A stretch of 64,000 nt of DNA, from NCBI RefSeq assembly GCF_964188315.1, contig NC_135667.1, positions 25,358,001 to 25,422,000 on the forward strand. Direction: 5' to 3'. This document shows, one piece after another, positions 3,487-62,370 of the stretch. The notes under the pieces are model-generated. The model saw only the letters and a program-made list of their open reading frames with translations. It ran no database searches and was not told where the DNA came from. A program made the position numbers and the translations under genes. The first letter of the stretch is position 1; the number at the start of each line of letters is the position of its first letter. This DNA is from Podarcis muralis (Eukaryota).

Positions 3487-4280
3487 AGCATGTTCTCCTT
3501 CATGGAGAGCACGTGTTGCAGTGAGGGCTGCCAGGACACTCCAAAGTTGGGGGTGGGCTAATTGATCGTTGGCTACTGATGTGATTGGGGCTTCCCTTGT
3601 TGTTGGGAAGAAGTTAATGTTGCCATTTGTTGACAGCCAGAAATGCTAAAACTCCTTGCACGAGGCTAGGGCTTCCTCTTTTCTCCCGTGCATCGGATTG
3701 CCCGCCCCCCCTCCCTAGAATTAGGGTTGTTCGCTTTGACCTTGCTATGCCTGTCATGGGGTTGTCTGCTCTTGGGGCAGGGGCCTGGTAGGAATTTTGT
3801 CCATCTGGCTGATTGGCTGGGGCCATTTGGTTTTTGCCTACTGCGTAGCAAATTGTCACACCTTGTAAGGTTGTGGTTAGGCATTGTTTTATGGTTTGGT
3901 TGGTTGAGGGGCATGGATTGGCTGTGCCTGCCCCTCTAATGCTGCTGCTGCAAGGGATTCCGTTAAAGGAATCGGGGGCTAACTATTGCTTGTCCACTCT
4001 GTCAAGGGGGCTCGGCCCATAGCAATGAGCTCCTGGTTGCATTTGGGGAGGGCTGAGGGCAGGTTCCCTGCTCCGTCGCTACCCCCAAGTGTATTCCCCT
4101 TTTCTGACTTTCACATCATTCAGAATGTCAGTCTGTCCCCCATGGTGGGGGCAGATAGTCGCAACCACTCACATTTTTGTATTTTAATAAAGTTGTGGCC
4201 AAAATTATGCCAAAAACCTTAAACAAAAAATTCTGTGTGATGTGTGAGTTATTGGGGTGGCCCTGGGGACCTTGACACGC
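3487..4280 (+). mobile_element. non-autonomous putative tyrosine-recombinase (Ngaro/DIRS-like) retroelement, copy 1
   Basis: 5' AGCATGTTCTCC..GGAGAGCAC hairpin; internal GATTCC-GTTAAA-GGAATC hairpin; AATAAAGTTGTGGCC; 3' end GACACGC-AA; no TSD; clearly similar to 61533-62370. Confidence 0.6.
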
Positions 4281-5394
4281 AAATGAATATGCAAACAGGT
4301 GAACATAAATCTGTTCAGACACACTAAGCAAGATGTAAGCTTAGAAATTCTGACGTTGCTATGTGAGAGTAGTATAACCAGATGGAGGAAAGGTGGGAGA
4401 GGAATTGTTGCAGGTTTTTTCTTCACAGATAGCAAGATAAATACGAGGACAGTAAATGGAAAAGGTTTTTCTTTTTTCTTTGTCAAGGAAGAAAGAAAGA
4501 AAAATGTTAGTCATTATTAATTAGATATTGTTAAGTAATACATTAGACTCAACAGCTTGTGAAACATAAGAATAACAGTCCTTAAAACAACTGACAATTA
4601 AGAAAAACACAAAACCCTACCATTAAAATTCTATATAGCAACATTGGATCAATAGCAGTACAGGAATAAAAATGACCTTTTTTTATAAGGAAAAAAGTTG
4701 GTTTCGGAATAAAAAATGTCTCCATGCTTATCAAAACAAAGCTCGCTGAAGGAGGATATGGGAGGGGATTGACAGATCCCCGTTTTATTCCATTATCAAA
4801 TGCATTAAACTTATCTCCATTTGTCACCTCATTTGGCAGTCATCCTGTCAATGTACTTCATTCAGCAGGCAAAAGCCCACATAACTACTGGTCTAGCTTT
4901 TGTATTTGTGGTCAAACAGGTTGGTCTAGTTTCTGCTCTTTGAAGCAGAATGTAGCATATCAGTATCATTTATTCACTGTTGGATTAGAATCACAGTCCT
5001 GCAGCTACTGAATCTCCTTAAAGATCACAAAACTTAGGTTGTGTCTTCAATAGTTGTTTTATTTCCTGGTCAGTATCTTATGAAAACAGATGATGTAACA
5101 TTCCTGCAATGATCAGTCTCTATTTAAGACCCAAATCAATTTGATTTCCTGGTTTTTGTTTGGGTGTGATGCTAGAAGCTGGTGTTTGAATCCAAGGTAC
5201 ACTATGGACATATATGACAATTAATAGAAGGGTATTTCACAAACCACTCCCTAATTTATCTTGGATAATGGTTGCACTGTATATACTAAAACCATTAAAC
5301 ATATGGGTGGAACAAAAACAAATGAGTGGATCAAAACATAATGTGGATCAGATAAATGTGATGTAAAACGTCTACCAAAAACCCCTGCCCTCTT

Positions 5395-8658: not shown

Positions 8659-11600
8659 TCTTCTGTAAGTTAATTGCTGCTTCCGCTGTTAATAAAAACA
8701 GAGCATGCTAAGCACAATTCTTGGGGGGGACGACAGTCAGTGAAATTGATTCATACAAAGTGACATCAGTCATATCAATAAATCCACTTATACTAGTAAT
8801 TATGGCATAGTCTGAAAAAACAATCTGGAAAGTCTGAAATCAGTAACGGGGCAAATCAGATGAAAAGTAGATCAGCAGCTAATAAAATAGTCACAAGATT
8901 CTTACTCATGTGATTATTCACAATTTCAATTTCAATGACTTTTAAAAATGTGTGCATAGATTTATTCAGCCTTTGCTATTGTTCTTCAGTTCAGGAGAGC
9001 ATCTGTTGCTCATTTTGAACATCTTACTTGCATTTACTAGTGGCTTGTAATTTTGATTGTGTGCTGAAGGTCCATTTCCTGGTCTGAGATTAAAATTTCT
9101 TCCCTCCTCACTGCAGCCTCAAAAAATCTGCTCTGGAAGGTTGGGGGACCTTCAGGACCAGATTTTGGAATGTGCATGAGAAGCTGGAGGAAGGGGAAGA
9201 GAAACCTGAACTTGCATTGCAAACACTAATTTCTGTTGTGGAGCTGGGAAGACAGCATTGGATGCCATACATAGTACAGGACTGTCAAAATACACTTCAG
9301 GTTTTATTCTAGTTGAAATGTGATTGTGAGTCTAGCATCCGGAGAGTGATATCTGACTTTCAATTTACGGTATATACCTTCAATTAATAATAAAACCAAT
9401 TCAAGCTATTCTCTATGGTTTTCAAGATTGAGAGCTAAACCATAACCTTCTAAAAAGGTAATAAATGTTACCAAAATACTCCAATTTGGAATACAGTCAA
9501 ATGCTAATTTGGAATACAGTCAAATACCATGACAAATAGGAATTTCCCAATTGACCTCTATGTAATATAAGGTTACACTTAAAAGTATGTGATACCTACA
9601 TGAAATAAAAATGATGACCTCACTGCTGTCACTGACCTGTTCAAATGCAGACAGCTAGTGGAGGAGGAAGAAAAAGAAGCTGAGGCTATCAAGTTCCAAT
9701 GAAACTGGATTTGGAAACAATAACACATGCATAATCAGGTTGTCAGTTTCTGTAATATCTCTTCATATCCTTATAACACAACTCTGAATATATATTTTTT
9801 TAAAAAAATCATTGGTCTGTTTCAGCCAAATTTATGGTCACATCCACACAATACATTTACTGTATAACATTTGCGAAACATTGCCAGGTATGACATCTCC
9901 TAAAATATCTTAGGAATTGTAATTTGTTAAGGGTGCTGGGAACTGTAGCTCTGTGAGGGGTCCCACAGCAACTCACAGCACCTTTAACAAACTACAGCTC
10001 CAATGATTCTTTGGGGGAAGCCATCCCTGTTAAAGTGACAGGAGAGTGCTTTAAATGTATAGTGTGAATGTGAACTGCCTTCAAATTGAGTTAATGCACC
10101 CTACTAAATTTGGCTGGAGCATGTGCTGCTTCAATGTATCTAGAACCCTGAGACTTAAATCTTGTACACACTTACCTGAGAGTAAGACCCATTGGATTCA
10201 GCAATGCCTACTTTTGAACAGACACGATTACATTGCACATCTTCATTTTAACTAGTTATTGGATTGCAATAGTTCTGGAGAAGGTAGACCTTTCAATGGC
10301 CCATTCTCCATGCTTTCTAACGGCAACTGTAAAAAAAGAAGGAAATCCATACTTGGATGGTTCTAAAGTTCTTATTGAAGCACTTCTACATCTGTCCTCT
10401 TTCAAGGTGATGAGAAGCTCAGATGTGAGGGATGCAATTTTTCAAAGGAGTCAAACAAGAAATCCTAAATGAGTAGAACCCTGGAGCTTTAACTTCTCAT
10501 AGCCTAAGAGATTTCCTTCTTATGGCTTTGCTTAGTCACAAATCCCACCTCTGTCCTATTACGTTAATAAGTTTATGGAATGCTAGGAGATCCACTTAGA
10601 ATGTGGTTAATGATAGCAACAAGGTGTCTTTCTCTCTCCTCCACCTTCCTTCTCCTCTCTCCCAGTTACCATACATTTGCCTCTCTACTGAACTGATAAA
10701 ACACATTTAACAATATTTTGAAAGGCGGCACTTTATTGAAATCAGTGGGATTTAGCTTTCTTTTCTTCATTTGCTGACTGACCTTGGCTTGGCTACAGTA
10801 CCCTAGGTCTCCAACAACAACAAAATTCTCAAAAAGCATATAATAGGGAGAAATGTGCTTTAAAATGCATAGATTAGTTGAGACAACATGCAAAAATGCA
10901 TTCTGTTATTGGAAATTGCTTGCACAATGGTTTATATAAGGAGAAATGTGCACTAAAGAACCACATTTTGTAACTGGTCCAAAGACACCCAGAGGTTGGC
11001 TGAGTGATGGCTTGAATCTAGGTCTCCCCACTGGGTCCTCTTCCCAATGTACTATGTTTCAGTTTGTAGCGAGGTGTTTCTCAACTAAGCCACCATTGTA
11101 GAATCACCACAGCAGTATGAGGGTATGTTCTGAAGAATGCATCAACATGGCACCCACAGAGACCAGGGTGCCCCCCCAGTATGGCACCTGCAAGTGTTCT
11201 AAATATATATCCTTTCAAAAAAACATAGTGTATCAGAGATTATTAGCTCTTCCTGTTCAGATCTTGTTGGCACTGGTTCAACTTTTCCTTTATTAAACAT
11301 ACCCTCTCAGGCAGTCCCATGCTTCATTTGATATGAGGAATGAATATGCACCCTCCACCCCATTCTGAAGAAAGGGAAGCTGCAAAAAACTTTTCTTCAT
11401 GAATGACTGCAGTGGTGACTTATATAGATGCACCCCTCCCCCACAATTGATGGAGGAAGGTGATGGATGCATGCCTATACCTGTCTCTTTTTCTGCTCTT
11501 TTAATTGTGGCATCAATTTCATGTTATGCCATGAAATCATGGCAGCCATTTTGTGTTGTGCCATGACCACACAATAGTCCTTTTGTGACTGGTTCCCATA

Positions 11601-14143: not shown

Positions 14144-16800
14144 CAGAATCAGGTGTTTTTCTGCCAAAACAACATTCATGAAAACTTAGTGACTGGAAAT
14201 AGTGGCTCTTATACTCTCACTTATTTGAAGAAATATTAATAATGCTCTCCATAGAATAACTGTTAAGAAATAAAAATATAAGCCAAAAGTTCATTGTGAG
14301 AGGATTTTATTAATTTAGCACTTTAGTTCAAAATAATTTCTTTCTCAAATGAAATATCACTACTTCTCATATAATATCAATTTGTCTTACTGTAAAGATT
14401 TCTATTCATAAATCAGTTTATATTATTTTGTCCATTTTTACACCTCTATTTTCTATACACTTTTGTTACAGGTCTTCAGCCTAGAATTAGTGGGTGTCTA
14501 GAATACATGCTGCATTTTCTGCCAGAAGGGCAGAGAGATGCTTTGATTTCTGTTTACAAAATTACTCTCTTTTACTCTGGATCTTTGGCATATTAATATC
14601 ATTAGCAAAAAATAAATACATTAGAAAACCAAACAACACAGAAATAAATTATCACAGGAACATGATTTACACTAATGAAAATAATATATGTTCCCCTGAA
14701 ATTTACTATTCCAGCAACTGATTAATAAAATTCTATTTTCATTAAATTTATCAGAGATTTTTCTTTGCTTCATAATCTTAGGATGGTAAACTGTAGTCAC
14801 TATATCCAAACTTTAAACCTATTAAACAAGGAGATGCTCTAGAAAAGTTTCACTTTGTAATGTTTTTCATAAAGATTTTCCTGGTGTTAGGATGCTGACA
14901 ATGGTGGCTTTAATGGGATTTTATCAATGGCTTTAAGCTTGTGTTATTTTGCTGTCCAATATAGAGCAAGAGAAGTCCATTATTTTCCCAGTCCAGACCA
15001 CTATGCACACAAAAGGGAAGGTGGCAGTGCCGGGTCTTGTGGAACAGTGGGGGAGGGAGGACATTTCTCTCTGCTGTGATCTTGTATGGTCCCATGGAAT
15101 AGGGATCACATATTATAGCAAAAGTATATACAGTTGTCCCAATTGTTTAGAGCCCATACATGTGAGTGTATTTTTTGTGTTTGATTTCCATTTAACAAGA
15201 GTAGTTAATTGGAAAGTCCATGAAGAAATTTGAAAGAATATAATTCTTGGGGAAATCGCTACTACCACATCTACACACATTAACCATTACATTTACAACT
15301 ACAACTTATTTCCCTTCTTCTGAACACTCTAAACTTCTGTCATTGAAATAGTAGAGTTTAGTTCTATTAATTTGTCCTGGATTGTGCCCTAAATGATTTA
15401 TAATAAAGACAATTCTTACCTTTCTATTGTTCCGATTAAGCTGATGAAGACCTCAAGACCAGTGTCACAATTAAAGAAAAAACTTCATTCCTTGGAGATA
15501 AAAAAGTTGTTATTGTTATTTGTGAATTTTCTTGCATTAAAATAATAAGCATTCTCACTTGAAAATTTATGGTGCTTGCCTAATCCATTGCAGCACATTT
15601 TTTAGTTTCTGATCCCATGTGTTTCAACCTTTATGCATCTTTGTTGAGAATTCTCTCCTGACTATAGACAATAAATTTATACACTTTGAGTAAATGCAAT
15701 GGGTGCTGCTTGATTTATTATTAAGCAGCAGGAGTAATGTCTGTGTATTTATTTACTTATTTTAATGTGCCAGGTGTATTGGATCAGGGAGAATGGGTTT
15801 TTCTCCCTAGGGTATAGGTGGAAACTCAGTCACAAACTTTATTTATATATAGCATCTGCAGCTGGGGGAAAAAAATCCCTGAGCAGCTAACAAATAGTGA
15901 CAAGACTCTGTTTCAATACCTCTCTTTTAAAAGCAACAACAAAAACACAGTATATACAAGTGTAGTTCTATGTTGCGTGCATCTGGAACATCACTGCAGT
16001 CAATCATTACTCAGGATGTAATTGAAGGAAAAAAGAAATTATAGATAAGCAAATAATTTTAGAGCTTTTATTTTGGGAGGGGAAGGTCAGTTTAAGGTAG
16101 GGATGGCTAACTCAAAGCTCATGTCCTCATGTGGCCCACCAAGCCATAGGAACCGACCTGCTCATCCCTGCTATCGTTCTTCTTGGGTGATCAAGATCTA
16201 TTTTTGCAGATAAGAAATATCTAAGGAGCAGACAGAGCACAATATCTCCTGAATGGGATATAAACTTTTATCTTGCTGCCCTTTAAATCTCTCAGTTGCA
16301 GTCAGAGCAGAAATGGCTCACTGAGTGACTTTCTAAAATCACCATCATCATCATCAAGACAAGCTGATGATGAAATGTGGAGAAGATTGGAAACAATGAG
16401 AAACAGAGATACCAAAATTGGCAGATTCTACCATCCCTATCACCAGCTTCGTTTCCACTTGGTTCTTCCCAAAAGCCAGATAGATAAAAAGTGCGGAAGA
16501 CATGTTGGATTACGGCAACCATTTCCAGCTCCAGTGTGTCTACAAATAGCATAAGTGATTCAGTTGTTCTGCCACAGAGGTTTTGCTATCATTTTTGAGA
16601 TAATTTTAATCTTTAATTAATAGGAAACAGGCTTGCCATGCAATCTTATGCATAGTTGATGAGGAGAGGCAGAGCAATCTACATCCCTAATCCACAACGC
16701 TGGAAGCTTTTTTGAGGTCTCTGCCCAGACCTGTCTGGCTCTGCCAGTAAGGATCACACCAGTTTACTCACTCAAACAATTGGCTAGTGGAAGAAGTGTT

Positions 16801-18139
16801 GCGTGTTCAGACCCAGAGACCTCCCCCCTAAATAAAAACACATTTGACTCAAATTTTAGTTTTGGTTTTTGGCAGAATTTAGGCCACAGCTTTATTGATT
16901 ACAGAAAAGTGAGTGGTTGCATAGGCTCTGGTTTGACTAGGTCCCTACACCGTTGCAGGTAGCACTGACCCAGAGCACTATCATAAGTCAGCCAAGGGTG
17001 AACACTTGTGGTAGGTGTAAAGCCCGGGAACAGACTCTGTCCATTCTCCCAGATGCTCCCCTGGACTCAGGCATAGGCACAACTCCTCTCGGGGGTTGAC
17101 CAAACCAAGTTGAGTCCCTGGATTCCTTTAATGGAATACCCTTCACATAAGGATGGCGAGACCGTTCTCCCATCCCTATCATTTGAACCAGTGCCTATCC
17201 ACCACACAAGCACCCGCACCCACCGCCAACCACTCACACCTGTAACCAATCCCATAACCCCACTAACACTGCAGTCAGCCACAAATCATCCCCAATCACA
17301 GACAGATGAACCCCATCAAGCCTGTAAAGGGATGGATCACTGAAGGTAATGCCCGGGTGACAGATCACTGTCCCACCCAAGGCCAGAATCTTCATGGCCG
17401 CTGTGCTCTGGACACACTTCCTGGACCTCTCGGTGGCAGCTGGGCAACTGGCTACCGAGCCACACACGTCACTGCCATCAGTGACCAAAATTTTTGAGTC
17501 CAGGAAGAGCTGCTCTCAACTCTTCCAAGTCCCCCCTCCCTACTTCAGATTTTAAAGAAGGGTGGGTGCCTACAAGCACACCACCAAGCAGGCGCAGTTC
17601 CATGAATAAAAGCCACATTGTATCGGGTAAGCCCAATTTCAGCCTCAGCTAAATTCATCCCCATTTTCAAAGGGGCTGCAGAAGCCTAATTGGGGGATGG
17701 GGATGGAACAACGGCAAGCTCCCTTTTACTGGGTGTAAAGCCCCACGCTGGGAAAAGACCCTCTTGTAGGTGAAGGGTTGGTGGGGGGTTAAATTAAGAT
17801 GAGGAGAAAATAAATTAAATTAGAAAGGAACCAGGAAAGAGGATAAAAGGAATCAATATCACCAACTGACAATCGTCAAAGGCAAGTCTCTCAGCTACAC
17901 ACAGGACAGGTTGCTCTCTGTTCCGTTTGCAAGAGGCGAAAGAGAACCTCTGGGTCACATACAAGGGATTAAATAGGTCCCTTGAATTGTTTAGGCTGCA
18001 CCCCATTGGTCAGATTACACCCAGCAACAAGTGACCTACCAATTCGGGTGTTGTGGCTATCCAATAGTCCCACCCACAACCAGGAGGTCGGTCTCCAGGT
18101 CTCACCGCAACACGTGCCCTCTTTTAGGGAGGACACACT
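16801..18139 (-). mobile_element. internally deleted putative Ngaro/DIRS-like retroelement, copy 2
   Basis: Same termini (AACACGC-AA and AGTGTGTCC), hairpins and AATAAAGCTGTGGCC as copies 1, 3 and 4; carries an SGNH hydrolase remnant. Confidence 0.65.
17234..17531 (-). pseudogene. SGNH/GDSL hydrolase C-terminal remnant (retroelement-encoded)
   Basis: Frameshifted DLEELRAALPGLK.WSLM.Q.RVW..CPAATERSRK...HPGITF....YRLDGVHLS; DxxH catalytic block. Confidence 0.6.
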
Positions 18140-27510: not shown

Positions 27511-28069
27511 CCTACATTGAGCAATATACTGATTATATGCTGTGAAATCCTATTCATAATTATTCAGAAGTTGGATTGTAATATATGTGTGGGTATTGTC
27601 ATATGTGTGGGGGCCCTGTTTCCACCAGGCAATTCATGGCAATATAGTATTCCTGTTAAAGCACTGGATTGCCCCAGATTATTCTGATTTTCCACAGCGT
27701 TGCTTAAGCAATTTGACTCCAATTGAATATGACCTGGTGAGTTAAACTTCCTTACCTGGTGGAAATTGTGTATCTTTGAAAGATGCAGTGTAGTTCTTGA
27801 CAGTTCTGAAGAGAAATGCAGAAATACTTTTTTGAAAGCATTTCAAATGAAATGAACAGGAACTGAAAGGAACTGAAATTAAGGATAAAAATGTATAAAA
27901 AATACCTCTACTCGTTCGCACTGCACAATAGTACATAGCACTGGATAAAATTTTCTGCTATAAATGTCTCCTCTCAAATATACAAGAAAAAGCAAGTCCT
28001 CTTAAATAAATATTCCTTCAGAACATGGGAGGGGGAATTGTGTCTTTATTGAGCTGTGATCAATATATT

Positions 28070-28949
28070 GCATGGCCAGGCGAAGACCCCCTGACCCCAG
28101 GCGACACCTGGGTGGAGTAATGATTCATGACAACATGCTATGGGATTAAAATTGGCCACAACTTTATTAAACTTTCAGATGTATGAAGACCTTGACTTAG
28201 GCATTGGGCATTTATTCCTCCCAGTCCCCAGCCGAGGATCTGGGAAACACCAGGGTTATGTAATCTGTGTGGGGTTAGGGCTGGCTCTGGAAGACGTATG
28301 TTTAAGCAGAGAGCCCCCCCCCCCATTTCACTGCAACACAGGGGAGAGCACTGACAACCTTTCAGCGTATGGCCAGTGACTCCCCTCATCACAACCCCTT
28401 TAACGGGGAACCCTGGGATTGCCGCCATGGGGGGGGGATGAGTCACCGCTCTCCCCCCCCCCCCGCCTCCTTTAGGGAGGATAGACTAAAGGATTCCACC
28501 CAAGGCCTGAAACCGCCAAAGTAGTGACATTTTGCTGTGGGGAAGGCAAAACCTGCCAATGCAGGGAAATTCCTCCCCGGTCCTTCAACAGCAACCATTA
28601 ATGACTGCAGCAGCGCCTGCATACTTGTAAAGAAGAGGTAACCTGCAATAAGAAGGCATAAACTGAGGGAGGGTCGGGCGGGAGAAGCTCTGGAGCTGAC
28701 TGAGGGCTCCCAGGTAAGTTCCACCCTCTATTGTGTGTGCAGGGCGGTCCCAATCCTACCTGGCCCATTCCCCTGGCAACGTCTCCCCAGCTGGGATTGG
28801 TTAATTGTTTAAGGTTAGGCAGGAACCTCCAGGTATCTAGCTTGGGGAAGCAAAGGTGGGCTGCATTGCAGGGAATCGCATTGGCTTGGGGGGAGGCTGC
28901 GCACGATCACACAAACAGTGCCCCCCATTTCATGGTGGGGAGTAGCCAT
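28070..28949 (-). mobile_element. putative Ngaro/DIRS-like element, diverged subfamily, copy 3
   Basis: TT-GCATGG terminus, GGCCACAACTTTATT (reverse complement AATAAAGTTGTGGCC), CCCC-TTTAAC-GGGG hairpin, subterminal hairpin near 28920-28940. Confidence 0.5.
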
Positions 28950-34510: not shown

Positions 34511-35750
34511 GAAATAAGGGTGATTTGGGAGGCCAGCAAAGCGGTAATGAGAGGGTTTCTGATACAACAAAACACAATTAGGAGAAAGTCACAGAATGAG
34601 ACTAAAGACAAAATTATGGAACAACTGAAAGATAAAGAGAAGAAGCTTAGAGGAAACCCAAAGAATTTGCAGATCCAAAAAGAAATTAAAGTCTTACAGG
34701 TTCAATATTCATAGTTAGTTAAGCAAGAAACTGAATGGAAGATAAGAAGGATGAGACAAAGAAATTTTGAATCGGCAAATAAATGTGGGAAATTACTAGC
34801 CTGGCAACTAAAGAAGAGACAAAAACAAAGTACTATTACAAACATTGTTACAGAAGGAAAATTGGTAGAGAACCCTGCAGACATTAGAAAATGTTTTTAC
34901 AAATATTATAAACAACTGTATAAAAAAGAAAAAGAAGATTTAGGGGAAATCGAGCAATTTATAAAGAACAATGGACTGCAACAGATTCCAAAGGATAAAA
35001 AGAATCTACTAAAAGGCTTAATTACAAGTGGAATACGCAATAAATTCAATGCAACTTGGCAAGACACCAGGACCTGATGGTCTAGCAGCGAAATATTATA
35101 AGACATTGAAAGATTGGCTTATGCAACCTCTGGTAGAAATATCTAATTCAATTTTACGGGGGGGGGGGGGGGGGGAAAGCACCTGAAACCTGGAAACAAG
35201 CTTACATTACTCTGATTCCTAAACAGGGTCTGGATAGATCCAATGTTAAAAACTACAGACCAATCTCCCTACTTAATGTGTATTATAATTTTTTTGCAAA
35301 TATACTGGCTAATAGGCTAAAGAAGGTTTTATCTGAGTATATTCATAAAGATCAGGCAGGATTTCTGCCTGGAAGACATATGAAAGACAATATTAGAAAT
35401 GTTGTGGATATTTTGGAAAAGTTAGAAGCAAAAAAGAGTTGGAAAGCAATGTTAATGTTTATCGATGCTGAGAAAGCCTTTGACAATGTTTCTTGGAGTT
35501 TTATGTTACATAACTTAGAGAGTATGGGGATAGATCATGATTTTCTAAACGGTATTAAAGTGATCTATCAAGAACAAAAAGCTAAAATTATTGTAAATAA
35601 TGTGGTTCCAGAGGAAATTAGAATTGAGAAGGGAACCAGGCAAGGGTGCCCATTGTCCCCTCTGCTGTTTATCTCGGTGGTGGAGGTCTTGCTAAGTATG
35701 ATTAGAAAAGATGAACAAGTTAAAGGTATTACAGTAGGTTAGAAACAATC
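34511..35750 (+). mobile_element. degraded L1 ORF2 fragment (linker plus RT N-terminal half) in V2R-A intron 4
   Basis: WEASKAVMRG, KTPGPDG, NYRPISLLN, QAGFLPGR, DAEKAFD, GTRQGCPLSPLLF; contains a stop and frameshifts. Confidence 0.9.
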
Positions 35751-37519: not shown

Positions 37520-38572
37520 CTAAAGGGAGGAGGGTGCAGAAAAGAAACAGAATGAATAGGAATGCTTTAATGGATATATCCAGTGAATTTTTCTGCAAGA
37601 TTTAAAAATGTACACCAGCACAATAAACAAAACTGCAAAACCATGAGAACTACCTTATCCCACATGTCCCTATGTGACCGCTATAATATCTGGTCTGCGT
37701 TTGTAAGAAGATTGGTTAGTTTGGCAGTGCCTTCACTTTGAAACTCCCTGCCTGTTTTAGATCAAGCAGTCGGCTTCACTGTGGTCTTTTTAATTGCTGC
37801 TAAAAACAGTTTTTTTTAAATTACCCCACTCAGTTGCTTAGAAAGCTGAGGTAAATTTATATTGTTGCAGTATTCTAACCTTTATATATTTTAAGGTTTG
37901 GTTGTGATTTTCTTTCTTTTTTTTCTTCTCTTAACTGATTTTGAGGTTTCATTTGCATTCAAACGGTTTTAAGTAATAATAAGTAAACAAATTGTCATGG
38001 CTTATGGAGTATGCTTCAATTAATGATGGTAAAATATTTATTAAGAATTGTGTTCTATTTCAGTTATGAATGGACACTCTCAAATGGAATTGAGAGAGCT
38101 GGAGCTTTAGGACTGTATATATGAATACTGATAAAGGAGATGAATGACCCATTCTTCCCTGGTGTCATTTGTACATTCTTGCCCAAAAGATTTGTGGCTG
38201 ATTTCATATATTTCTCAATAATTGTCTTCTATGAAGATTAACAAAGCTGCAACTCTGTTAAATCACATTGTTCTCTGCTTTGAGTTAATGCATCTAACCT
38301 CCTTTTGGTGATTGCCCGGCTATATTCAAGCTGATCCTCAATTTTCTATAAGCTCAGATGATGAAAAAACTAGAGGAATGAAAAAGTATGTTGTTTTGTT
38401 TTTATTAATTGTATTAATAAATTCAGGATTTTTTATTTAAGGTTATGCTTTTTTCACAATACCAGTTTACATATTTTAGCATCTATACCATAAAGTGAAA
38501 TATGGTTGACAATACAAACATTAACAGAAAACCACCTTAAACCCATAGTGCTCAGCACAGAGACTGTTATAC

Positions 38573-51628: not shown

Positions 51629-52690
51629 CTACGTGGAGGAGGGTGCAGAAAAGGAACAGAATGAATAGGAATGCTTTAATGGATATATCCAGTGAGTTTT
51701 TCTGCAAGATTTAAAAATGTAGAGCAGCACAATAAACAAAACTGCAAAACCATGAGAACTACCTTATCCCACATGTCCCTATGTGACCACTATAATATAT
51801 GTTCTGCGTTTGTAAGAAGATTGGTTAGTTTGGCAGTGCCTTCACCTTGAAACAACCTGCCCATTGTAGATCAAGCAGTTGGCTTCACTGTGGTCTTTTA
51901 AATTGCTGCTAAAAACATTTTTGTTTAAATTAGCCCACTCAGTTGTTTAGAAACCTAAGGTAAATTTAAATTGTTGCAGAATTCTAACCTTTATATGTTT
52001 TAAGGTTTGGTTGTTTTTTCTTCTTTTTTCTTATTCTCTTAACTGCTTTTGAGGTTTCATTTGCATTCAAGCGGTTTTAAGTAATAATAAGTAAACAAAT
52101 TGTCATGGCTTATGGAGTTGGGTCCCTATGCTTCAATTAATGATTGTAAAATATTTATAAAGATTGTGTTCTATTGCAGTTATGAATGGACGCTCTCAAA
52201 TGGAATTCTGAGAGCTGGATCTGGAGGACTGTATATGATATATGACTCTTGATAAAGGAGATGAATGACCTTTGCTTCCCTGGTGTCACTTGTATATTCT
52301 TGCCCAAAAGATTTGTGGCTGATTTCATATATTTCTCAATAATTGTCTTCTATGAAGATTAACAAAGCTGCAACTCTGTTAAATCACATTATTATCTGCT
52401 CTGAGTTAATGCATCTAACCTCCTTTTGGTGATTGCCCGGCTACATTCAAGGTGATCCTCAATTTTCTATAAGCTCAGATGATGAAAAAACTAGAGGAAT
52501 GAAAAAGTATGTTTTTTTTTTCTTAATTGTATTAATAAATTCAGGATTTTTTATTTAAGGTTATGCTTTATTCACAATACCAGTTTACATATTTTAGCAT
52601 CTATACCATAAAGTGAAACATGGTTGGCCATACAAACATTAAGGGAAAACCCTCTTAAACCCATAGTGCTCAGCACAGAGACTGTTATAC

Positions 52691-60979: not shown

Positions 60980-61532
60980 CTACGTGGAGGAGGGTGCAAA
61001 AAAGGAACAGAATGAATAGGAATGCTTTAATAGATATATCCAGTGAGTTTTTCTGCAACATTTAAAAATGTAGAGCAGCACAATAAACAAAACTGCAAAA
61101 CCATGAGAACCACCTTATCCCACATGTCCCTATGTGACCACTATAATATATGTTCTGCGTTTGTAAGAAGATTGGTTAGTTTGGCAGTGCCTTCACCTTG
61201 AAACTCCCTGCCTGTTTTAGATCAAGCAGTTGGCTTCACTGTTGTCTTTTAAATTGCTGCTAAAAACATTTTTGTTTAAATTAGGCCACTCAGTTGCTTA
61301 GAAAGCTGAGGTAAATTTATATTGTTGCAGTATTCTAACCTTTATATGTTTTAAGGTTCGGTTGTTGTTTTTTCTTTTTTCTTCTTCTCTTAACTGCTTT
61401 TGAGGTTTCATTTGCATTCAAGTGGTTTTAAGTAATAATACGTGAACAAATTGTCATGGCTTATGGAGTTGGGTCCCTATGCTTCAATTAATGATTGTAA
61501 AATATTTATAAAGATTGTGTTCTATTTCAGTT

Positions 61533-62370
61533 GCGTGTGTAGGTCCCCAGGTCACCCCTCAAATAACTTCACACATAACACGTAATTTTGTTTTGGTTTT
61601 TGGGCACTATTTTGGCCACAACTTTATTAAAATACAAAATCAGTGAGTGGTTGTTTAGACATTGGTTATGACTATCTGTCCCCCCGCCTGGGACAGAACT
61701 GGCACCCGAGGTCCGATCGGTAGCCAGTAGAAGAGAAAGTCAAACTGGGGGGTCACTTGAGCTAAGCGTCGGACCCACGCCGCTCACCCCAGCAGCTCCC
61801 CGAAAGCTTGCCTGCCCGGTCCTATAACAAGGATTCCCATAACAGGGATTGGGCGGCCCTGGTCCCATAACAGGGATTGGACGAAATCGTGGCAAGCCCC
61901 AGGATTCCTTTAACGGAATTCCCTTCAGCGCAATAGGAGGGGCAGGCCCAGGCTGACCCCTCCACCACCAGCATATTATAACCAATGCCTAACCGCAACC
62001 TTACAAGTTGTGACGAATTGCTGAGTAGCAGGCAAAAACCAAATGGCACAGCCAATCACCAAATGGCAAAATTCCTACTAGGCCCCCGCTCCAAAGCAGA
62101 CGACCCCATGACAGGCAAAGCAAAGTCAACCGGAAAGAGGGCGGGCGGGCGGGTGATCCGATGCACTCTGCAAAGAGAAAGAGAAACTAGAGTGCACCAA
62201 TATATAAAGACTATGGTCCCACCCACCCAATTTGCAACATACAATTTGCCCCAGCAACCCGGTTACCCAATCATGATGCCAGGCAACAACTATTAACCTG
62301 CCTGGCAACAAGAGGCCTGGCCTGGTGGCCCACACCGCAACACGTGCTCTCATTTATTGGAGAACACGCT
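61533..62370 (-). mobile_element. putative Ngaro/DIRS-like element, copy 4, inserted in V2R-C intron 2
   Basis: Empty site visible in V2R-A and V2R-B (CAGTT|ATGAATGG); termini TT-GCGTGT ... ACACGCT-TT; at most a TT overlap, no true TSD. Confidence 0.7.

Follow-up and report, generated by a model that had tools for sequence, protein, structure and literature searches.

Shortened Ngaro retrotransposons in a lacertid lizard and a predicted junction hairpin as a candidate substrate of their recombinase

What are the four diverged elements that lie among receptor genes in a region of the Podarcis muralis genome, and how do such elements insert without duplicating their target? The question arises in a window of 64,000 nucleotides (NCBI RefSeq assembly GCF_964188315.1, contig NC_135667.1, positions 25,358,001 to 25,422,000 of the forward strand), which is the whole stretch of DNA analysed here and is numbered from its first letter. 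Its open reading frames, as read from their translations, form a cluster resembling olfactory-receptor and V2R genes. Olfactory-receptor-like ORFs are present at 8688, 14185, 23181, and 29627. The region 31720-64000 consists of three tandem V2R-like paralogs of 90-97% identity, among which LINE-like ORF fragments are found at 35137-35739 (+) and 45530-43836 (-). The original prediction held that the four elements are solo terminal-repeat derivatives of a Ngaro-like lineage and that their joined ends form an att-like site. It identified the Ngaro family from the sequence alone but chose the wrong symmetry.

The four elements with their common motif and predicted ends are real. The motif AATAAAG(T/C)TGTGGCC occurs at exactly four positions in the window, 4186 (+), 16896 (-), 28168 (-), and 61628 (-), and sits 80-95 nt from one element end in each copy. 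Taken together with the relatives of each copy and the genomic junctions described below, the pattern is far beyond chance. The motif belongs to the part of the element called B, is common to all families, and resembles a poly(A) signal (4186..4200 on the plus strand in copy 1), as which it may function. Copies 1, 2, and 4 start with AGCATGT, AGTGTGT, and AGCGTGT, respectively, and all three end in ACACGC-AA; the copy coordinates given below were refined to include the terminal AA. The four copies represent different subfamilies that display 77-88% identity over short blocks and share only 20 nt with copy 3. In the genome (1.52 Gb), each copy has at least 40 scored relatives, as the searches scored the best 40 candidates each and relative counts are therefore lower bounds.

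Full-length parents of these elements were identified through their junction. The joined-end junction occurred 98 times in the genome, compared to zero occurrences of a control pattern. All 97 junction loci were fetched, one of which carries two junctions. A second B was located ~800 nt downstream of the junction in 97/97 loci, and A1 was located upstream, within 8-8.5 kb, in 95 of them. The parent anatomy in these 95 loci is A1-gag-RT/RH-YR-SGNH-B1-A2-spacer-B2. In other words, the parents have split repeats (A1...B1-A2-B2) whose internal repeats lie downstream of YR, and they contain the internal copy of the end-to-end junction that had been predicted for them. The median sizes (n=95) were 211 bp for A, 174 bp for the unique spacer, 424 bp for B, and 7266 bp in total. 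A1 and A2 were 100% identical in 78/95 copies, B1 and B2 were identical in 63/97, and four open frames with their motifs were kept in 37/97 loci. Among 40 loci selected by RT, 17 showed both repeats abutting.

The proteins of the parents are those of a Ngaro element. Pfam PF00078 (RT) scored above cut-off in 3/3 parents. RNase H was recognised by eye from its D-E-D-D motifs, Pfam giving no match. PF00589 (phage integrase/YR) matched at E values of 1e-4 to 1e-5, under the curated cut-off, and the catalytic residues R-K-H-R-W-Y were present in 11/11 aligned copies. A comparison of the YR with solved structures gave no sequence match at E 0.1, and its AlphaFold model had a pLDDT of 39. The gag-like ORF1 is ~510-590 aa long, with a weak CCCH-finger match in two of three parents. 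GDSL/SGNH matches in Pfam, also in two of three parents, were under the curated cut-off, and GHS and DGxHL motifs were present in 59/97 loci. No methyltransferase family matched the parent ORFs, the RT/RH frame stopping ~30 aa past RNase H, and no integrase or transposase family matched any of the 15 ORFs scanned with Pfam. The nearest named proteins to the parent RT came from Podarcis muralis (97%), followed by Zootoca, Anolis, and other squamates, and then amphibians; these homologs are uncharacterized squamate and amphibian proteins. The parent anatomy matches the Ngaro definition as given in passages of PMC9210276, PMC3783388, and PMC4157794. It is thus almost certain that the four elements derive from Ngaro tyrosine-recombinase retrotransposons of the DIRS order. 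The family has recently been active in this lizard. Both Ngaro and Ngaro solo repeats are already published.

The four copies are different reductions of such parents. Copy 1 (3487..4282, plus strand, 796 nt) is composed of A at 3487-3700, a spacer at ~3701-3871, and B at ~3872-4282, and over its full length it is 89% identical to the A2-spacer-B2 end of the full-length parents L183 and L085. It has 29 relatives at 92-95%, none with B1 upstream. Copy 4 (61531..62370, minus strand, 840 nt) is very young; its A (62370-62154), spacer (~62153-62000), and B (61999-61531) are together 99.2% identical to the A2-spacer-B2 3' end of the full-length copy L100. Identity to a parent's A2-spacer-B2 end marks copies 1 and 4 as solos. 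Copy 3 (28068..28948, minus strand, 881 nt) is a solo A-spacer-B unit of a distant, older family. Its A starts with TGACC and its B ends in CCACGC-AA, and 24 relatives of 79-86% identity were fetched. Three real junctions of this family are present in the genome. They read CCACGC-AA-TGACC, and two of the three lie inside short non-autonomous A1-SGNH remnant-B1-A2-B2 elements that are 72% identical to copy 3. The arms GCATGG/CCAT, which had been taken for a feature of copy 3, turned out to be decay of that copy, as its relatives start with TGACCGC after the target AA and end in CCACGC-AA. Copy 2 (16799..18139, minus strand, 1341 nt) consists of A, an internal piece, an SGNH 3' remnant, and B. 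The remnant of the SGNH-hydrolase ORF, with its DGVHL block (17255..17452, minus strand), showed 53% identity to a parent's ORF (tblastn, E 1.7e-18). Copy 2 is therefore an internally deleted, single-B form of an older family, and the predicted status of a solo terminal repeat applies to copies 1, 3, and 4 only. In all 19 fetched relatives of copy 2, the element stops at one B that no A2 follows, and a genome search found no intact junction of its family.

The ends of the full-length copies argue that the target is preferred but not duplicated. The right end reads ACACGC-AA in 97/97 copies, and the A1 start is intact in 95/95. The left flank ends in AA in 81/95; the remaining 14 all keep the right AA, and the reciprocal case of a left AA with a non-AA right end was never seen (p 1.2e-4). 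Because the right AA is constant while the left flank varies, AA belongs to the element and there is no true target-site duplication, as had been predicted. Duplications of 3-7 bp were present in at most 1/95. The termini are conserved in many copies. The target bases (n=95) were T in 52 copies at -6, G in 44 at -5, a purine in 86 at -4, a pyrimidine in 75 at -3, and A in 89 and 83 at -2 and -1, respectively, which gives a target preference of TGRYAA^. The solos of copies 1 and 4 follow the same pattern. Copy 4 lies inside a V2R paralog but not in its long exon ORF, and its empty sites are found in V2R paralogs at 52181/52182 (within 52175..52188, minus strand, TCATAA^C) and 38065/38066 (within 38059-38072). 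They read TTCATAA^CTG on the minus strand, in agreement with the target preference. The element lies at the caret and ends in its own AA, so that the insertion formally repeats only AA.

The position of the crossover is equally constrained. The predicted role of the junction as the crossover site was borne out, as the crossover falls at one fixed base in every copy, inside AAA, after the second A. No second crossover position was seen in 95 + 97 ends, and no B2 was followed by A sequence at an outer element end. Permuted copies (A2-spacer-B2-A1-ORFs-B1) were found at none of the 97 junction loci. The end of the element reads C(G/A)CAA, followed by A or T.

Which feature of the junction could define this crossover? 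The original prediction pointed to a 6-bp inverted repeat around AAA, formed when the ends are joined. This repeat is present in the main family only and was 62.7% paired with no compensatory change among 21 junctions, and the crossover falls inside AAA rather than at its borders. The inverted repeat is rejected as the functional site for its lack of covariation and its restriction to one family. A different fold-back of ~45 nt spans the B/A junction, in which CGCAA of the B end pairs with TTGCG located ~30 nt inside A. In copy 4 this inner arm, TTGCG, lies at 62336..62340 (minus strand); in copy 1 it lies at 3516..3520 (plus strand), where it would pair with the 3' end CGCAA and has CpG-decayed to TTGCA. 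Read from the outside, the fold opens with a 3-bp outer stem, followed by a bulged A, the 5-bp CGCAA/TTGCG stem, and a 2-nt mismatch right after the crossover, which thus falls at the stem/mismatch border. Further inside are a 4-bp covarying stem, a T-G pair, an inner stem, and a variable loop. The 4-bp stem varies in step as CGTG/CACG, CCCT/AGGG, CCAT/ATGG, CCAC/GTGG, and CCCC/GGGG. At +7, the T-G pair hardly varies, and in most cases the plus strand gives the more stable fold.

The fold was scored on 21 of the 28 listed junctions, seven near-duplicates being omitted. It was 91.9% paired, with two-sided changes in 8/16 pairs, whereas slid controls were 38-52.5% paired. Its covariation was 0.441 compared to 0.156 +/- 0.019 in shuffled alignments, a score to be read with the fact that the structure was derived from the same sequences; two of five fold measures did not beat the shuffles (68/500 and 298/500). 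For further families, the genome was searched with two more distant RT proteins, and 40 loci were fetched. The same fold shape was present in every family examined. In the literature searched, no paper describes a junction hairpin in Ngaro or Ngaro in Podarcis; Goodwin & Poulter 2004, Poulter & Goodwin 2005, Poulter & Butler 2015, Repbase/Dfam, and supplements lie outside this search and may already cover lizard families, solos, or junction details.

The first target base tracks the partner base of the hairpin. In families whose hairpin partner is G (n=159), the target +1 base was C in 58 insertions, A in 57, T in 33, and G in 11. The share of C (58/159) exceeded a background of 22% (p 2.9e-5). 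In copy 3's family, in which the partner is T (n=24), T was found 14 times, A 10 times, and C and G never; the difference in C between the two sets was significant (Fisher p 7.6e-5). Further families agreed loosely with this rule (8/12, 3/3, and 2/2). These counts include the window's own copies and leave out 7/30 copy-1, 3/20 copy-2, and 4/25 copy-3 loci with no recognisable end, as well as 8/30 copy-4 loci, of which seven lie inside full-length copies and one has a changed end.

How might such a junction mediate insertion? On balance, we lean slightly towards a model in which the elements are shortened Ngaro derivatives and the predicted junction hairpin is a recombinase substrate that inserts as a single strand. 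Its core, an exchange of one strand as at integron attC sites, is an analogy for which the case stands about even. In this model, a single strand at the B/A junction of the parents is predicted to adopt an imperfect hairpin. The fold would form in DNA and serve as the substrate of the element's recombinase, which likely cuts the folded strand just after CGCAA. The cut strand would be joined to one strand of a TGRYAA-like target, and replication would likely complete the insertion. The plus strand is somewhat favoured over the minus strand as the one exchanged, and only the end-to-end (B2/A1) copy of the fold would be used. Once freed, the end of the target would pair with the hairpin base that faces +1, and that of the element would pair with the target. 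Cutting the plus-strand fold after CGCAA yields a +1 prediction for each family, with which the observed counts can be compared: A or C where the element's own base is A and its partner is G, and T or A in copy 3's family. A single strand exchange with replicative resolution would also leave one inherited crossover position.

Several observations weigh against the folded-strand model. The T-G pair, being nearly invariant, would suit a fold in RNA just as well, and the +1 rule points to the plus strand, whereas the DIRS-1 intermediate is the antisense strand. The family-specific +1 preferences could stem from the protein. A minus-strand substrate sensing homology at -1 to -4 is a possible alternative to the plus strand. 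The lack of permuted copies would require that only the end-to-end fold is used, for example one formed by pairing the two ends of a linear cDNA. As a single-stranded circle carries two identical folds, 0/97 permuted copies call for an extra assumption there.

One alternative, which we consider unlikely, is that the fold acts in RNA. At the internal B1/A2 junction it would promote template switching, pausing, or Gag/RT binding and thereby set the cDNA ends, and the recombinase would act on linear ends. The U-G reading of the T-G pair at +7 and the greater stability of most folds on the plus strand agree with this idea. Linear ends would account for the lack of permuted copies, and DIRS-1 cDNA is described as mostly linear in the relevant part of PMC7192593. 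However, an RNA fold would not predict a link between the first target base and the partner base of the hairpin, nor does it explain why the crossover lies exactly at the stem/mismatch border, as in attC.

A related question is how the shortened forms arise. Solos likely arise by recombination between A1 and A2, and single-B forms by recombination between B1 and B2. Among the RT-selected loci (n=40), 21 were complete, 14 were single-B forms, and five were truncated or unclear. Recombinase-driven excision at the internal junction would yield the same solos. We consider it unlikely that solos and single-B forms are primary recombinase products, excised at or inserted from the internal junction fold, rather than products of host homologous recombination. 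The idea draws on the abundance of solos even in a very young subfamily, in which they make up 23/30 of the top loci at 97.5-100% identity to copy 4 (with L154, located in a full-length copy, reassigned), on the short length of A (~211 bp) at ~6.4 kb from its twin, and on the intact fold inside every full-length copy. Homologous recombination, however, yields identical products and simply explains the single-B forms (14/40 RT-selected loci and 19/19 in copy 2's family). It also simply explains the tandem 3' repeat of L100. This full-length copy (L100:7715-9866, on G000:C5) has an extra tandem A-spacer-B at its 3' end, with two junctions 840 nt apart, and either unequal recombination or a repeated template jump could have produced it. 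The folded-strand model can be extended to a wider analogy in which Ngaro integrates like integron cassettes, the recombinase recognising the B/A junction as a folded single strand and exchanging one strand with a chromosomal half-site before replication resolves the product, and in which the fold inside full copies lets the recombinase excise or insert solo and single-B forms. We hold this extension tentatively, a little below an even case.

Somewhat less likely than the RNA reading is the classical route, in which elements of the same Ngaro identity integrate when a double-stranded circle recombines with the target at the shared AA, the hairpin being idle or doing something else in integration. 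The main-family junction reads AA-AGCGTG-TT, and this arrangement resembles the core of dif, the site of XerCD, in the form AA-6 nt-TT. The AA of the left flank in 81/95 copies also accords with this route, which is the one published for DIRS-order elements in the part of PMC7192593 that treats them. But the TT is missing in copy 3's family. Moreover, no copy among 97 is permuted though both circle junctions would be identical over >600 bp, so that of the predicted circular DNA intermediate a plain double-stranded circle is doubtful. A second crossover position or a heteroduplex outcome is absent in 95 + 97 ends, and the covarying fold and the excess of C at +1 are left unexplained. Finally, the elements recall an LTR in their size of 0.8-0.9 kb, their promoter-like front, and a poly(A)-like signal close to one end. 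A derivation from TIR transposons, or from an endogenous retrovirus or LTR retrotransposon in the form of solo LTRs, is nevertheless ruled out for practical purposes by parents with YR and split repeats, by zero integrase or transposase matches in 15 ORFs, and by the absence of TG...CA ends and of true target-site duplications (3-7 bp in at most 1/95). None of the outcomes that had been named as refuting the original prediction was seen.

The parents can be compared with DIRS-53_XT of Xenopus tropicalis as presented in the passages on it in PMC9210276. Both have A1...B1-A2-B2 split direct repeats, with an A of ~211 bp here and 236 bp there, and overlapping gag, RT/RH, YR, and SGNH ORFs with no methyltransferase. 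Unlike DIRS-53_XT, the lizard elements have a B of ~424 bp rather than 152 bp and a unique spacer of 151-185 bp between A2 and B2, and those passages hold no description of a junction fold or target preference. They assign the SGNH ORF to amphibian Ngaros, whereas the host here is a lacertid lizard. Of the 90 metagenome/MAG loci, 70 reached a length of 3 kb or more, and an SGNH-like ORF was present in 32 of these 70, so its range extends past amphibians. Hairpins sharing the outline of the junction fold occurred in 9/90 of these loci compared to ~1 per shuffled replicate, a comparison in which collapsed assemblies hid most junctions; only L383, whose ends are putative, had a strong hairpin at a plausible B/A position. 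Ngaro-like RT(-YR-SGNH) contigs, mostly short, occur in bacterial or archaeal MAGs (L379-L388) and probably stem from host animals whose DNA contaminated symbiont bins.

For the Ngaros of Cafeteria, solo AB repeats have been published (PMC8547959). SIRE of the Trypanosoma cruzi element VIPER is an equivalent of a solo AB, its origin being left open in the corresponding part of PMC6681497. Like these, the lizard solos represent the 3' end of a split-repeat YR element that survives as an isolated A(-spacer)-B unit, and like SIRE they have a short exclusive middle part. Unlike both in the accounts available in those sources, they can be tied to 97-99% identical parents with empty sites and a target preference, and a second reduced form (A-ORFs-B) accompanies them. 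DIRS-1 of Dictyostelium, for which the relevant part of PMC7192593 describes a single-stranded, antisense, mostly linear cDNA, is likewise a YR retrotransposon that contains its end-to-end junction as an internal copy and has a few bases in common with its target, but it has inverted repeats with an ICR and a methyltransferase in place of direct split repeats and SGNH.

For the junction itself, the closest comparison is integron attC, the anatomy of which is taken from parts of PMC5027507 and PMC3458562. Both are imperfect hairpins with a conserved shape and a variable sequence, in which the crossover falls in the outer stem, immediately 3' of ...AA, and mismatches follow it; both also have an extrahelical base, a variable terminal loop, and one inherited crossover position. 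As far as those parts describe attC, the lizard junction differs in that the invariant AAC triplet/RYYYAAC core is absent, the cut is followed by a mismatch instead of an invariant paired C, and the bulge lies in the outer rather than the inner arm. There is also no fixed target of the attI type, and the element is a eukaryotic retroelement. The likeness concerns the way the sites would work only, as single-strand chemistry is a prediction here. The attP site of the CTX phage is grouped with attC as another folded-hairpin site.

If the folded-strand model is true, a vertebrate holds a tyrosine recombination system that acts on a folded strand, with a short donor site defined by shape and a target of ~6 loose bases. 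The family and its solos being known, what is added is a well-constrained, testable integration model. The data give a concrete substrate, a fixed cut position, and a target preference. Three quantitative constraints, namely zero permuted copies, one crossover base, and the partner-base rule, make the model testable by a simple oligonucleotide assay. At least 37 copies in this genome have all four frames open, and several families are available together with insertion scars that can be read in the hundreds. Young Ngaro activity seems to have received little description in squamates, and the LTR-like solos, which are numerous in lacertid genomes, might be taken for ERV LTRs.

Several further features of the full-length copies were observed. 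Broken or partly duplicated ORFs are common to many young copies (among them L081-L084, L086, L087, L089, and L098) whose repeats are yet 97-100% identical, which points to young non-autonomous subfamilies moved in trans. In L085, L088, L093, L095, L096, and L099, the SGNH frame is preceded by pyrimidine-rich tracts that end in AG, and a conserved start codon is missing from the YR frame; these sequence features make splicing ahead of both frames likely. Four raw RNA runs gave 147-169 reads each, mostly partial and from related repeats, in which no splice joint and no start or end peak was found, so that they carry no information on expression or splicing. One stretch of ~50 nt in the 5' region of an element (L093:3115-3168) draws many partial RNA reads of another repeat family and is perhaps common to a SINE. 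An Rfam scan of four loci gave one weak, sub-threshold, irrelevant match and no structured RNA or ribozyme. The A2-B2 spacer (150-185 bp), likewise with no Rfam match, differs less between subfamilies than do A and B and is possibly a priming or packaging signal; most of it is missing in L263, in which the repeats are still identical. In L085, the beginning of B and the segment directly preceding B1 show complementarity, by eye, to a stretch that lies a little upstream of the poly(A)-like signal. This complementarity could mask the signal in B1 and permit read-through to B2. Lastly, a 30-Mb contig (G000:C20) holds a disproportionate share of the RT matches, from several families, and is possibly a repeat-rich sex chromosome.
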